From NCBI GenBank assembly GCA_963977015.1, contig CAXBMO010000008.1:128001-192000 (forward strand): a DNA stretch of 64,000 nt. The letters run 5' to 3'. The translations under genes were made by a program, and so were the position numbers. Shown piece after piece: positions 27,604 through 32,675 of this stretch. Under the pieces are notes generated by a model. The model saw only the letters and a program-made list of their open reading frames with translations, did no database searches and was not told the DNA's origin. Positions within the stretch are counted from its first letter, which is position 1. Each line of letters begins with the position of its first letter. This DNA is from an uncultured bacterium. Lineage in GTDB: Bacteria; Verrucomicrobiota; Verrucomicrobiia; Verrucomicrobiales; DEV007.

Positions 27604-29130
27604 ATGATGAAAACCCATGTAGCATTCGCAGCAGCCTTCTCCCTGTTCGCCAGCTTCTTCGACCCTTCCGCCGAGGCGCAATCCAAGCCGAACGTTCTGA
27701 TTCTCTATGCGGATGATCTGGGGTTTGGCGATCTAGGGTGTTACAATGCGGATTCCAAGATTCCGACGCCGAACCTGGACAAGCTGGCGGCTGAGGGAAT
27801 CCAGTTTCTGGATGGGCATTCTTCTTCGGGCATCTGCACGCCGAGCCGCTATGCGTTGCTGACCGGGCGTCATCACTGGCGCGATTTTCACGGGATTGTG
27901 AATGCGTTTGGGAAGTCCGTGTTTCAACCGGAGCGGCTTACGATGCCGGAAATGCTGCAAGAGAATGGCTACCACACCGCTGCGATTGGCAAGTGGCACC
28001 TCGGTTGGAATTGGGACGCGGTTCGGAAGCCTGACGCGAAGCCGATCAAGGAAGGGAAGCGGTCAAGTTGGGGGCCGGAAGCGTTTGATTGGACCAAGCC
28101 AATCCCGGACGGCCCGTTGGCCCATGGGTTCGACCATTACTTTGGCGATACGGTGATCAACTTTCCGCCCTATTGCTGGATTGAGGATGAGCATGTGGTG
28201 AAGGCGCCCGATGTGTTGATGGACACGGCCAAATGGAAGACCATCAAGGAAGGGAATTGGGAATGCCGGCCGGGACCGATGACGTCCGACTGGGATCCGT
28301 ATGAGAACATTCCCACGACGACGAAACGTGGAGTCGAATATATCAGGAAGCAGGCGGAGAACGATGAGCCGTTCTTTCTCTACTTTGCGTTTCCGTCGCC
28401 CCATGCGCCGATCATTCCGAATGACCAGTTTGATGGAAAATCCGAGGCGGGGCCCTATGGCGACTTCGTGTTCGAAACGGACGATGCCTGTGGGCAGTTG
28501 TTGGCTGCGCTGGAGGAATCCGGCCAGGCGAACAATACATTGGTTATCTTTACGGCGGACAATGGGCCGGAGAAATACGCCTATGCGCGAGCCGAGAAAT
28601 TCGGGCATTGGTCCGCGGAGCCGCTTCGTGGGTTGAAACGCGATATCTATGAGGGCGGGCATCACGTTCCGTTCATCATCAAGTGGCCGGGCAAAGCGAC
28701 GCCGGGCGTTTCGAACGCGTTGGTCTCGCAGATCGACATCATGGCCACGGTGGCTGAGGTGTTGGAGGTTGAGTTGCCGGATGATGCTGCGGAGGATTCG
28801 CACAGCCTGCTGCCGCTGCTGAAAGGGGAGGCCGAATCAGTCCGGGACACGCATGTCCATAACACCTACGACGGGCAATATGGAATTCGAAACGGTGACT
28901 GGGTCTTGATCGACGCCAAAGATGGTTATCGCTCAGGTCGGAACAAGGCCTGGGAAGCCGAGCGCGGATATTCGAAGGACGATGATCAGCCCTTTGAACT
29001 CTATAATCTGAAGGATGACCTCGCTCAGAAGAACAACGTCGCGGCACAACATCCGGAGAAGGTGACCCAGCTGCAGGCGCTGTTGAAGAAAATCCGCGAA
29101 CAAGGCTTCTCAGCCCCGCGTTTGCAGTAA
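27604..29130 (+). CDS. Arylsulfatase
   Basis: Signal peptide; [38 protein letters not shown]. Confidence 0.94.
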
Positions 29131-29238
29131 CCCGATAGCTTTTTCCGAGCTTCGTGGAATCAGCATCCCGGTGCGGAAGTGGCGATGGCGATGGCGATGG
29201 GATTCAATTAGGTGCTTGGTTGGCAGCGGTCTTCGAAC

Positions 29239-30241
29239 CGGTCTCCACCGGGGCTCGCCCCCGTGGAACCAAGATCAACAACAGACCTGATCCCCAAATC
29301 TCTCGCCCCAACCGGGTTCACCCCGGTTGAGCGCTGACGCCTTTCTGAACCGCGTTGAACGTGTATTCGCCGACCGTTCCCACAAACCCGCCAAACTGAA
29401 AGACGGGTTTCATCCCATGTGCGAACGCCAGGTTGTTCAGAAACCCCAGCGCCACCTCCTGCGGCGATTGCTCGAAAGGACATCCGGCCAGGATATGAAC
29501 GTGGTCGGGAAGGATTCCCGCTTCAGCGAGCAAGTATCCTTTGGCCTGGGACGACTGCTCGATCATCCGGCTCACTTTCCTCAGAACATCATCGTTGATA
29601 GTGTTGGTACGCCCCTAGTGCACCAACACCAAGTGCAGCGAATACGAGAACAATCCGTGAGAGGTTCGTTGGGGTTGAGCGAGGTCGATCTCAGGATGAG
29701 AGATCTGATAGGTTTGCAATCGCTCCTGGACTCCCGGGTCGGCCATTTGATGGTGTGCGAGCTGGTCGGAAACATAGTTTTCGATCACATCGCGGGTGAT
29801 CTTCCCAAAACCATGCAGCGAGAAATTGCGCTTAAAGGCCTTGGGACGATCAGACCGAACCAGGTGTTGGAGTTTGCCTTTGACCCGTTGAACGATCGTG
29901 ACCGGCGCAACCTCGGGCGGCGATGAAACCCAAAACTGGCTGGCCCCGGTTTCCGTAAACCGGTGGGAGTTGATCCGGAGACCATCGGGTTCGGTGGCTT
30001 CTATTAGTTGGGGTAACCATCGATCGTCGTGGCAAGGTTCTCGCCAAAATACGCTCACGCTCCAGTTGAGCGGATGGGAGAAGCGACAGTTTTCCGCGGT
30101 GTAGATGGGTTCGCGGTTGGCCATTCCTCTTAGGTCGGGTCATCGCACCTTCGGGGCAAGCCCGAAGGTGGCGTCTTTTTTTGGGGGATACTTTCTGTTG
30201 TTGATCGGGGTTCCCACGGGGACGAGCCCCGGTGGAGACCG
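29239..30241. mobile_element. ~1-kb IS200-related element bounded by ~100-bp imperfect inverted repeats
   Basis: Left 29239-29338 and right 30139-30241 are reverse complements (cggtctccaccggggctcg..., gatcaacaacaga..., then an inner hairpin), flanking a Y1 transposase gene. Confidence 0.75.
29318..30124 (-). pseudogene. Tandem-domain IS200/IS605-family (Y1/HUH) transposase, interrupted by one in-frame TAG
   Basis: ORFs 29615-30124 and 29318-29575 are in the same frame, separated only by TAG (29615-29617). Motifs VSSPP..IVQRVKG, VIENYVSDQ, SH...LHLVLV, PDHVHIL, FVGTVG. Confidence 0.8.
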
Positions 30242-30395
30242 AACTTTGCTGATCTGGGAAATCGTTGCAACGACGACGAAAACGTAATTGGTCCCGGGCC
30301 GGCCACTGAACTGCTCGTAGATGCGGTCCACGTTGCCCACGACAATAGAATCGTTGCGCCGGTAAAGCCCTGACGGGTCAGTCGATACGCCCTCC

Positions 30396-32675
30396 TTACG
30401 ACAAATTGTAGGCATCGACATCGATCGTGACAATGACGTCTTCCGGGAAGGTCATGCCGGCGAGGTGTTTGCGGATGTGCTCGGTGATTTTCCTCGGATT
30501 CTTCGCTCTCAGCAAAACCTGGAACCGGAACTGGCCGGCGGCCTTGATGAGGGGGGAGGGCATGGGATCGGTGAGGCGGATTTCCTCGGGAAGGTCGCGC
30601 TGCATGCGCTTGACGAGCGTTTGCAGGGAGAATTCGGCCTTGCGCTCGTGCTCGGAGCGGGTGGTGATGACGGTGACGTGGGCGTAGGGCGGGAAACCAA
30701 GCGCCTTGCGGGCTTCCAATTCCTGATCCGCAAATCCGTCGAAATCATGATGGCGGGCAAACTGGATGGAAGGGTTGTGGGGAGTGTAGGTCTGGATGAT
30801 GACTTCTCCTAACAGGTGACCTCTTCCTGCCCGGCCGGCAACCTGGGTCAGCAGCTGGAAGGTGCGTTCGCCCGCACGGAAATCCGGGATGTGGAGACTG
30901 ATGTCAGCGGCGAGAACGCCGACGAGAGTGACGTTGGGAAAGTGCAGTCCCTTAGCGATCATCTGGGTGCCGATGAGGATGTCGTATTTCTGCGCCTTGA
31001 ACGAGTTCAGCGTTTCCTGGAGTTGGCCCTTGCGCTTCATCGCATCGGTATCGACCCGGGCAATTTTGGCTTTGCGGAAGAGCTTGTTGAGCACTCCCTC
31101 GACGCGTTCCGTGCCATAACCGGCAAAGTGGATGGAGGGGCTGGAGCATTCCGGGCATTTGCGGAGCGGAATGCGTTGGAAGCCGCAAATGTGGCAGATC
31201 ATCCGGCTGTCGTTTTCGTGAAACGTGAGCGTGACACTGCAGTGCGGGCATTCGACACGATGACCACAATCCTGGCAAAGCACGGACGGGGAAAACCCGC
31301 GACGGTTCAGAAAGAGAATGGTTTGCTCTCCGCGGTCGAGACGTTGCTCGATCGCAATGCGGAGCGGCTCGGAGATGATCGAAACTCCCCCCTTGTCTTT
31401 GCGGGATTTCCCTTCCGTCCGCATATCGACCACGCGGGTCAACGGGAGCGCCTGGGCGTCGGCGCGTTGGGTCAGCTCAATCAACTGATACTTCCCGGTT
31501 TGGGCGTTGTGGAAGGATTCGAGCGCGGGGGTCGCACTTCCGAGCAGCAGCGTTGCATGCTCCAATCTCGCACGCACCACGCTGATGTCCCGGCCCTGAT
31601 AACGGGGCGGGCTTTCCTGCTTGTAGGTGTTTTCGTGTTCCTCATCCACCACGATCAGCCCCACGTTTTCCAACGGTGCGAAGATGGCACTGCGAGCGCC
31701 AATCACGATCCTGGCTTTCCCATCGAGGATTTTGCGCCACTCATCGTGGCGTTCGCCGTCGCTGAGATGGCTGTGGAGAATCGCGACCTGATCCTGAATC
31801 GCGGCAAACCGGCGTTTGAAGCGTTCGGTCGTTTGTGGCGTGAGTGAGATTTCCGGAACGAGAACGATGCTGCTTCGTCCGCGCTCCAGCGTCTCGGCGA
31901 TTGCCTGGAGGTAGACTTCGGTTTTTCCGCTGCCGGTGACGCCCTTGAGCAAAATCGGCTTCTTTTGCTCGGCATCCATGTCCGCGAAAACCGCTTTCAG
32001 AGCCTCGTCCTGCTCGTCGTTGAGTTGCAGGGCGCTGCTTTCGAGAAATTCTTCATCCTGCTGAAACGGATCGCGTTGCTGAATTTGATCGCCGACTTCG
32101 ACCCAACCCAATTCTTCGAGCCGTTTGACTGCGGAGGGGGCGCTGCCGTGCTCGGCGCTCAACGTCGACAAGAGCATTGGGGTTTCCGGATTGCGCATCA
32201 GTGACTCGAGAATCGCGGCCTGGCGCCGGGCCCGTTTTTGCAACCCTTGGAGATCTTCCTCGGTCGGCTGCTTCTTGAGGAGAACCGCTTTCTGGGTCTT
32301 GAAACCTCCCGAGCCGGTTCGCACAACTTCGGGAATCATGCCGCGGACGGCGGTTTCCAGCCGGCACGCGTAATACTCGCTCATCCACTCCGCCAAACGA
32401 AGCAGAACGCTGGAAATCAGGGGCTTCGGGTGCAGCAGGTTGAGGACGTTCCGTAATTTGAAGCCTTCCTGACCGGCGATCGGCGCAACCTTGATAATCG
32501 TTCCGTTGACCTTGCGGTTCCGCAGGGGAACGCCGACCCGGCATCCCGCCAGGGCGCGATCGCTCATCGCCTTGGGAATGGCATACCAAAGCTCAAGGTC
32601 AGGTGCTTCATCGACGAGGACGAGGCACTTGGTCGTGGCTTGGTCGCTGATTCCGACGAGTTGCCCCTGCTGCAT
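30396..32675 (-). CDS. priA: Primosomal protein N' (replication restart helicase)
   Basis: GVTGSGKTEVY, VPEISLTPQ, DEEHE, four CxxC, GTQMIAKG, QVAGRAGR. Confidence 0.97.
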   Translation of the reverse strand: MQQGQLVGISDQATTKCLVLVDEAPDLELWYAIPKAMSDRALAGCRVGVPLRNRKVNGTIIKVAPIAGQEGFKLRNVLNLLHPKPLISSVLLRLAEWMSEYYACRLETAVRGMIPEVVRTGSGGFKTQKAVLLKKQPTEEDLQGLQKRARRQAAILESLMRNPETPMLLSTLSAEHGSAPSAVKRLEELGWVEVGDQIQQRDPFQQDEEFLESSALQLNDEQDEALKAVFADMDAEQKKPILLKGVTGSGKTEVYLQAIAETLERGRSSIVLVPEISLTPQTTERFKRRFAAIQDQVAILHSHLSDGERHDEWRKILDGKARIVIGARSAIFAPLENVGLIVVDEEHENTYKQESPPRYQGRDISVVRARLEHATLLLGSATPALESFHNAQTGKYQLIELTQRADAQALPLTRVVDMRTEGKSRKDKGGVSIISEPLRIAIEQRLDRGEQTILFLNRRGFSPSVLCQDCGHRVECPHCSVTLTFHENDSRMICHICGFQRIPLRKCPECSSPSIHFAGYGTERVEGVLNKLFRKAKIARVDTDAMKRKGQLQETLNSFKAQKYDILIGTQMIAKGLHFPNVTLVGVLAADISLHIPDFRAGERTFQLLTQVAGRAGRGHLLGEVIIQTYTPHNPSIQFARHHDFDGFADQELEARKALGFPPYAHVTVITTRSEHERKAEFSLQTLVKRMQRDLPEEIRLTDPMPSPLIKAAGQFRFQVLLRAKNPRKITEHIRKHLAGMTFPEDVIVTIDVDAYNLS

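Follow-up and report, generated by a model that had tools for sequence, protein, structure and literature searches.

A conserved two-domain family of Y1 HUH transposases with reciprocally lost catalytic motifs, probably single-chain TnpA pseudo-dimers

Insertion sequences (IS) of the IS200/IS605 family carry their ends in direct, not inverted, orientation. In other enzyme families, fused pseudo-dimers are known in which tandem duplication of a homodimer and reciprocal loss have left one composite site. The IS200/IS605 transposase TnpA, a Y1 enzyme of the HUH (histidine, hydrophobic residue, histidine) superfamily, has a composite active site formed by the HUH motif of one subunit and the tyrosine on the swapped helix D of the other (PMC3597680; PMC3479197). 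TnpA_REP of Escherichia coli is a monomer that performs Y1 strand cleavage and joining with one site; strand transfer by this single-site enzyme is discussed in the same paper (PMC3479197), and how a one-site enzyme moves DNA is an open problem. In the classification of Quentin et al. (2018), subclass 1.2 comprises single-domain proteins of 148 aa with the signature Y---Q--HH from Cyanobacteria and Bacteroidetes, without associated hairpins, and class 3 comprises single-domain proteins of 178 aa with Y----Q from Planctomycetes and Acidobacteria in a REPtron-like setting. Here we describe a gene in a stretch of 64,000 nt from an uncultured member of the Verrucomicrobiales (assembly GCA_963977015.1, contig CAXBMO010000008.1, positions 128,001 to 192,000; hereafter, the window), whose single frame joins two TnpA-like units that have lost complementary halves of the catalytic machinery. 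This fused, reciprocally degenerate architecture is real and conserved. In our assessment, the gene is likely to belong to a conserved family of ~265-residue proteins, centred on the Planctomycetes-Verrucomicrobia-Chlamydiae (PVC) bacteria, that are single-chain TnpA pseudo-dimers with one composite site and that nick and rejoin hairpin DNA, the copy in the window being probably disabled.

The minus-strand frame runs from 30124 to 29318, comprises 268 codons, closes with a TGA stop at 29318-29320 and holds a single in-frame TAG. A sequence-only reading of the window had placed two IS200 TnpA-like units in this frame, and the list of open reading frames (ORFs) and the translation confirm them with all of the quoted motifs: VSSPP, IVQRVKG and VIENYVSDQ (Y117 and Q121), with ASQ/SQF at residues 61-64, as well as SH..LHLVLV, PDHVHIL (H208 and H210) and FVGTVG. 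For the Pfam and NCBIfam searches, the query was the whole protein (P0001) with X placed at the stop codon. The Pfam family Y1_Tnp (PF01797) was matched at 47.2 bits against a cut-off of 23 (E 2.9e-12), in the two partial stretches that had been predicted: residues 65-121 correspond to profile positions 56-121, the tyrosine half, and residues 160-224 correspond to positions 4-68, the HUH half. The NCBIfam IS200 equivalog NF033573 reached 51.3 bits, below its cut-off of 55.

The motifs DH[VI]H and Y---Q are those of class 1, to which the IS200/IS605 enzymes belong. In TnpA, a single domain of ~130-150 aa holds both HUH and YxxxQ and assembles into a homodimer with two active sites, whereas the 268-aa chain described here has HUH in unit 2 only and YxxxQ in unit 1 only. 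The exact Y---Q--HH signature of subclass 1.2 occurs in unit 1, but the protein has two domains and flanking hairpins; with class 3 it shares the host phyla and the REPtron-like setting, but not the Y----Q spacing. In both of these groups, HUH and the tyrosine lie in the same domain, unlike in the present protein. The tyrosine transposases associated with repetitive extragenic palindromic (REP) sequences (RAYTs; E. coli TnpA_REP/YafM, 4ER8; class 2 of Quentin et al.) have YxxxNP where this family has YVxxQLxHH, and the RAYT model NF047646 scored 13.6 bits against a cut-off of 80. Judged by sequence, the protein, in its REPtron-like setting, is neither a RAYT nor, by architecture, a canonical IS200 TnpA. 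The available text of Quentin et al. (2018) contains no class with two domains, and unexpectedly long proteins were discarded in that study as fusions or annotation errors. A full-text literature search found no account of a Y1 transposase in tandem or pseudo-dimeric form, and the words 'pseudo-dimer' and 'pseudodimer' were absent from the TnpA, IS200 and HUH papers found. The architecture is thus apparently an undescribed variant of the Y1 HUH transposase superfamily. The sequence-only reading had gone further and suggested an undescribed system with a different mobilisation or nicking mechanism; the fused, reciprocally degenerate architecture that it described is borne out, but a different chemistry need not follow, given the one-site cleavage and joining by monomeric TnpA_REP (PMC3479197).

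Structure prediction and profile comparison both assigned a TnpA fold to each half. The homologue alignment used throughout comprised 115 of 120 listed homologues (149 found), after exclusion of five short entries (P0036, P0052, P0111, P0121 and P0006, the last being the 169-aa ORF of the window itself). With this alignment, AlphaFold2 modelled the full-length homologue P0003 (71% identical) at a pLDDT of 94.3 and a pTM of 0.90, and the secondary-structure order beta-beta-alpha-beta-beta-alpha-beta-alpha appears twice in the model. Unit 2 (model residues 148-263) matched whole TnpA chains of IS200, IS608 and ISDra2 with Z scores of 9.6-10.1 (Foldseek, VIA). Unit 1 modelled alone (AlphaFold2, 73 loci) had a pLDDT of 84.8, and in a VIA search of 48,161 PDB representatives its best matches were 2ec2_A (Z 11.9, 110 aligned residues) and IS608 2vhg_A (Z 11.1, 108 aligned residues, model 13-122 on chain 11-131), with the next fold dropping to Z 8.0; the N-terminal half is accordingly predicted to have the TnpA fold that had been proposed for it. 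When profiles of the two units were searched against PDB sequences, unit 1 matched 2f4f_A at E 1.3e-4, with its YvasQ aligned on the catalytic YIEEQ, and unit 2 matched the same chain at E 1.2e-11 (positions 5-112 on 4-118), ending before the tyrosine helix. The fold of IS200/IS605 TnpA (2VJV, 2XO6, 2F4F and 2EC2) is therefore found in both halves of the model, and the sequence profiles match it too. A circular permutation of a single domain, which the order of the two Pfam stretches might have indicated, was rejected on account of the complete fold in each half. A homodimer prediction with two copies of P0003 scored 0.00 against a mark of 0.42, which is evidence neither way, and the ESM Atlas returned only generic 'Transposase IS200 like' clusters.

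The reciprocal loss of motifs is conserved across the family, as is the unit-1 tyrosine, and both results favour the sequence-only reading. The homologues found (149 at E<=1e-3, best 1e-128, well above what chance would give) are uninterrupted proteins of about 256-286 aa. At the three positions corresponding to HUH in unit 1, the 115 aligned homologues have S in 108, Q in 107 and F in 108, and histidine occurs there 1, 2 and 0 times, respectively. By contrast with this lost motif, the retained residues are nearly invariant: the unit-1 tyrosine is present in 113 of 115, the glutamine at Y+4 in 115 and the subsequent two histidines in 105 and 112, and the D-H-x-H of unit 2 has D in 112 and its histidines in 114 and 115. 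When 1.84 billion cluster representatives were searched with a family profile, 1520 proteins were recovered at E<=1e-3, 642 at E<=1e-10 and 244 at E<=1e-30. From the 150 of these that were listed, 66 representatives of 50%-identity clusters span both ends, and 84 fragments were dropped. The tyrosine is found in 59 of the 66 (4 have gaps, and N, V and L occur once each), the glutamine in 59 and the unit-2 histidines in 64 and 61; at the unit-1 HUH site of these 66, histidine is seen twice at the first position and never at the third. A unit-1 HUH motif was present in none of the 115 homologues and none of the 66 distant full-length representatives, and unit 2 ends before the tyrosine helix. The same reciprocal pattern is seen in a 36%-identical paralogue in a genus-mate. 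An assembly or tandem-IS artefact was rejected, because uninterrupted full-length homologues occur in hundreds of genomes and independent contigs match the sequence.

In species-representative genomes, the family was found at 324 loci. Planctomycetota and Verrucomicrobiales account for most of them, and a few lie in metagenome-assembled genomes (MAGs) labelled Acidobacteriota, Nitrospinia or Chitinophaga. One divergent branch of four representatives (P0150, P0175, P0187 and P0200; mutual identity 31-43%) consists of full-length two-domain proteins in which the second unit-2 histidine and the tyrosine of the GTVGEY motif are lost in all four and the unit-1 tyrosine and glutamine in three each, together with the KGR motif. 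These joint losses fit one shared functional site, which is weak evidence given that the branch is possibly a single clade; the four proteins may be catalytically dead, exapted derivatives. Their persistence at full length is what would be expected if the whole family were a catalytically idle DNA-hairpin-binding protein, a regulator or structural factor with nuclease relics. For the main family, we consider such a role very improbable, as the near-invariance of the HUH-chemistry residues in the 115 homologues would be difficult to account for in a protein with no catalytic activity.

The gene lies between two double-hairpin elements in inverted orientation (Table 1), a REPtron- and REPIN-like setting to which the sequence-only reading had given too little weight. 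Each element folds as two hairpins in single-stranded DNA (z -3.0 to -4.0). The stop codon of the gene falls within the loop of the second hairpin of the downstream element, and the last residues of the protein are encoded by the conserved GAGCGCTGAC end of that element. In the genome (6.9 Mb), an nhmmer profile of the element located 25 copies, 4 of which flank the two gene copies. The remaining copies are mostly inverted doublets, + then -, spaced 13-25 nt apart, and they look like gene-less versions of the gene-bearing unit. Across 24 genomic copies, 93.1% of the cells pair, vs 38-48% when the pairing is slid; compensatory changes on both sides are seen in 10 of 20 pairs, and the covariation score was reached by 0 of 500 shuffles. 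No Rfam family matched positions 29100-30450 of the window at E<=1.

About ten gene-less doublets were catalogued (loci L096-L105), for example at C8:29154-29417, C1:557301-557552, C10:5950-6210, C6:339923-340194 and C4:397709-397968 of the source genome (G000). Many doublets share a GAATGGCGC-like motif at either outer end, ~30 nt past the profile, which may give a non-autonomous unit of about 330 nt. At 30143-30181, a strong GC hairpin (CACCTTCGGGG..CCCGAAGGTG) followed by a T run on the + strand resembles an intrinsic terminator; this is the second hairpin of the upstream element and lies within the 5' leader of the gene, which is on the opposite strand. A short GGCGAT tandem run (GGCGATGGCGATGGCGATGG) occupies 29184-29200, just beyond the downstream element.

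Inverted hairpin arms also accompany the gene elsewhere in the family. Among 82 related loci, 63 had enough flanking sequence and 19 had too little, and inverted arms of at least 40 bits were present in 45 of the 63, compared with 0 of 63 in both controls. These arms consist of a hairpin and a tail of roughly 20 nt, often ending in the complement of GTAG. A complete Schlesneria genome contained 20 hairpin hits (with at most 3 mismatches), 14 of them beside the gene and in opposite orientation on its two sides. Several loci bear tandem repeat arrays (L061 in Schlesneria sp. T3-172, G041:C1:5349169-5350842; L079; L031) with a period of about 72-75 nt, up to 10 units on one side and 3 inverted units on the other; the hairpin arrays at these three loci yield long spurious ORFs.

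This setting resembles that of RAYTs in several respects: the gene is flanked by inverted palindromic repeats in a REPtron-like manner, dispersed repeats and REPIN-like inverted doublets are present, copy number is low, paralogues are divergent, and, as far as the motifs indicate, the enzyme would have a single active site. It differs from that of RAYTs in the two domains of the protein and in the repeats, which are double hairpins of 105-125 nt in tens of copies, vs REPs of 20-40 nt in hundreds, with REPINs or BIMEs usually exceeding 100 copies per genome. The IS200/IS605 elements, in turn, have near-identical copies, direct hairpins and frequently tnpB, whereas the family described here has inverted arms, divergent paralogues, low copy number and no conserved tnpB or other partner. 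The same repeats could nevertheless belong to an autonomous insertion sequence, in which the gene and its two inverted double-hairpin ends of roughly 125 nt form the mobile unit, the gene-less doublets are miniature inverted-repeat transposable elements (MITEs) and the protein is a true transposase. The two gene copies of the source genome indeed align over 29229-30364 of the window with 91% identity, flanks included, the gene-less doublets keep the same + then - arrangement and spacing, and the distribution is patchy: of 41 related genomes, 3 (with G000 counted) carry the family, all from a single genus, against none of 37 genomes from other genera. We regard this explanation as unlikely. Within a genome, paralogues share 47-92% identity and each has its own type of hairpin; this is the RAYT pattern and not that of an active IS, whose copies are nearly identical, although identical copies may collapse in MAG assemblies. 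The shared region also continues for ~120 nt beyond the upstream element and takes in a host-gene remnant, so the duplication was not a precise transposition, and the ends are inverted, whereas those of IS200/IS605 are direct.

The in-frame TAG bears on the copy in the window. The sequence-only reading had read the gene through this codon; the frame is otherwise intact, but the TAG is a genuine stop and a full-length product is improbable. The second genomic copy (C1:339132-339935; protein 92% identical) has TAG at the same codon 170, and codons 135-212 are identical at the DNA level between the copies, a tract of 234 nt with the TAG inside. Over the rest of the frame, the copies differ at 28 synonymous and 21 non-synonymous codons, including 6 and 4, respectively, 3' of the TAG. 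In the homologue alignment, the TAG column holds R in 59, Q in 17, D in 17, E in 9 and other residues, all encoded by sense codons, and genus-mates have TCG, CGG and CAA at this position. Recoding of TAG by an altered genetic code was rejected as unlikely, because relatives use sense codons and no tRNA with a CTA anticodon was found among 59 tRNAs (ARAGORN; genome 95% complete). In Logan contigs from 3 of 4 runs of one marine-metagenome study, the TAG was covered without difference; those runs were of low depth and may be the source samples. One Logan contig represents a third variant that keeps the TAG and has synonymous changes at 29581 (T>G) and 29600 (A>T) and the substitution N177D (T>C at 29596). 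Of 64 columns with conservation of at least 90%, the two copies retain 62 and 63; members of the family miss a median of 2.

The most economical reading of this codon, and its most likely history, is that a nonsense mutation arose recently and was transferred to the paralogue by gene conversion. Given the same TAG in both copies, the full-length enzyme is most likely not made in this genome, and the copy in the window is probably inactive. A TAG that is tolerated, with the enzyme still working through low, perhaps regulatory, read-through or through reassembly of two fragments (one of 169 aa that reaches the end of strand beta-1 in unit 2, the other restarting at GTG 29575 or the next ATG), seems to us improbable. 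It would account for the retention of the codon in both copies and in the third variant contig, for the lack of any other defect at the conserved columns, for the synonymous differences that outnumber non-synonymous ones 3' of the stop and for a break that, in the model, falls in a loop between secondary-structure elements. These points are set against the missing suppressor tRNA, the sense codons of all 115 aligned relatives and the genus-mates, the identical tract, compatible with a fresh nonsense allele that gene conversion recently spread, and the origin of the contigs from a single study that may have supplied the source samples.

Beyond the upstream element, a stretch that precedes both gene copies (for the second, at L007:1241-1366) reads as the N-terminal remnant of a TIR-like ORF (..YRRNDSIVVGNVDRIYEQ..; FISYRRDD..IVVGNVDRIYEQ), with mostly synonymous differences between the copies. 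A third match to this remnant, 46% identical, lies at G000:C34:40071-40187 in an open frame of 566 aa. The shared remnant indicates that the duplication carried flanking host sequence along. Across 80 related loci, no conserved partner gene was found, and the best neighbour cluster was present in only 5 loci. In these 5 (L016, at 513-2042, L018, L046, L088 and L093), the upstream gene encodes a TIR_2 plus FGE-sulfatase protein (Pfam E 6e-10 and 3.7e-40, respectively, at L016), and no other neighbour recurs as often among the 80 loci.

Table 1. Coordinates of the two-domain gene, its motifs and its flanking elements in the window
Feature	Position	Strand	Evidence
Frame of the whole two-domain Y1 HUH protein	29318..30124	-	ORF list and translation; Pfam Y1_Tnp in two stretches
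Unit 1, codons 1-147: TnpA fold without HUH, bears the Tyr helix	29684..30124	-	
SQF, codons 62-64, at the unit-1 HUH position	29933..29941	-	alignment of homologues
YVSDQ, codons 117-121: unit-1 helix D residues, putative catalytic Tyr and metal-ligand Gln; HH follows at 124-125	29762..29776	-	
Unit 2, codons 148-268: TnpA fold, HUH present, no Tyr helix	29321..29683	-	
HVH, codons 208-210: unit-2 HUH motif, preceded by D207	29495..29503	-	
Codon 254, Tyr in GTVGEY, end of the last unit-2 strand	29363..29365	-	alignment of homologues
In-frame TAG at codon 170, within the unit-2 loop that follows strand beta-1	29615..29617	-	
Downstream double-hairpin element	29229..29356	+	inverted repeat with the upstream element; nhmmer 2.4e-30; z -3.76
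Upstream double-hairpin element, inverted relative to the downstream one	30127..30244	-	nhmmer 3e-25; z -3.95
Stretch of ~120 nt past the upstream element, shared with the second copy; reads as the N-terminal remnant of a TIR-like ORF	30245..30364	-	

We propose that the two diverged IS200-type Y1 HUH domains would together reproduce the IS200/IS605 TnpA dimer within one covalent chain. Y117 and Q121, carried on helix D of unit 1, would meet H208 and H210 of unit 2, making this the sole surviving composite site, and the reciprocal site would be gone, with SQF in place of HUH in unit 1 and the tyrosine helix missing from unit 2. On single-stranded DNA, the protein would recognise the flanking hairpins, cut a fixed distance away by way of a 5'-phosphotyrosine link and then rejoin the strand, leading to spread or processing of the repeats. 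Such a role would be the one proposed for RAYTs, but taken up from the IS200 class 1 lineage. The analysis itself shows the architecture, the folds, the conserved motifs, the association with repeats and the stop codon, whereas active-site geometry, monomeric action, substrate and chemistry are all what we infer for the protein.

Several observations weigh against parts of this proposal. The single composite site is something that we infer by homology with the domain-swapped IS608 dimer. A direct comparison of the unit-1 and unit-2 profiles by hhalign was not significant (probability 0.4%, E 0.16), yet the alignment was in register; the common origin of the halves rests on the separate TnpA match of each, and either the duplication is old or the halves diverged fast. 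The repeats are few, with 25 copies here and 20 in Schlesneria, vs the hundreds typical of REPs, and the duplicated gene and flanks would suit a small transposon with MITE-like derivatives no less than a domesticated system. Besides the TAG, no decay is seen in the frame, as judged from the conserved columns, the synonymous excess and the third variant, and this leaves some probability for a stop that is tolerated or read through. Finally, Y254, which the sequence-only reading had overlooked, is without a role in the favoured single-site model. This tyrosine of GTVGEY is invariant in the 115 homologues and present in 55 of the 66 distant representatives, and it aligns 10 residues before the canonical catalytic tyrosine of 2f4f. 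A role for it would exist if an asymmetric pseudo-dimer had become a REP-like mobilising enzyme independently of the RAYTs, with a single HUH centre served by both Y117 (in trans) and Y254, so that one site both cleaves and transfers as in Y2 HUH enzymes; we hold this version to be improbable.

For the single-site pseudo-dimer that we favour, the copy in the window is a local footnote, as the same stop codon probably silences both paralogues. The family as a whole would be a natural, conserved, single-chain version of TnpA with exactly one composite site retained over a long evolutionary time, and a ready-made asymmetric system in which to examine the trans/cis helix-swap model; the capabilities of a lone Y1 site could also become visible in it. 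Tool builders, too, could take an interest in so compact an enzyme with recognition of hairpins in single-stranded DNA. The PVC bacteria gain a candidate enzyme for their structured intergenic repeats, and the family could show selfish transposases becoming repeat-handling host genes in a second, independent lineage.

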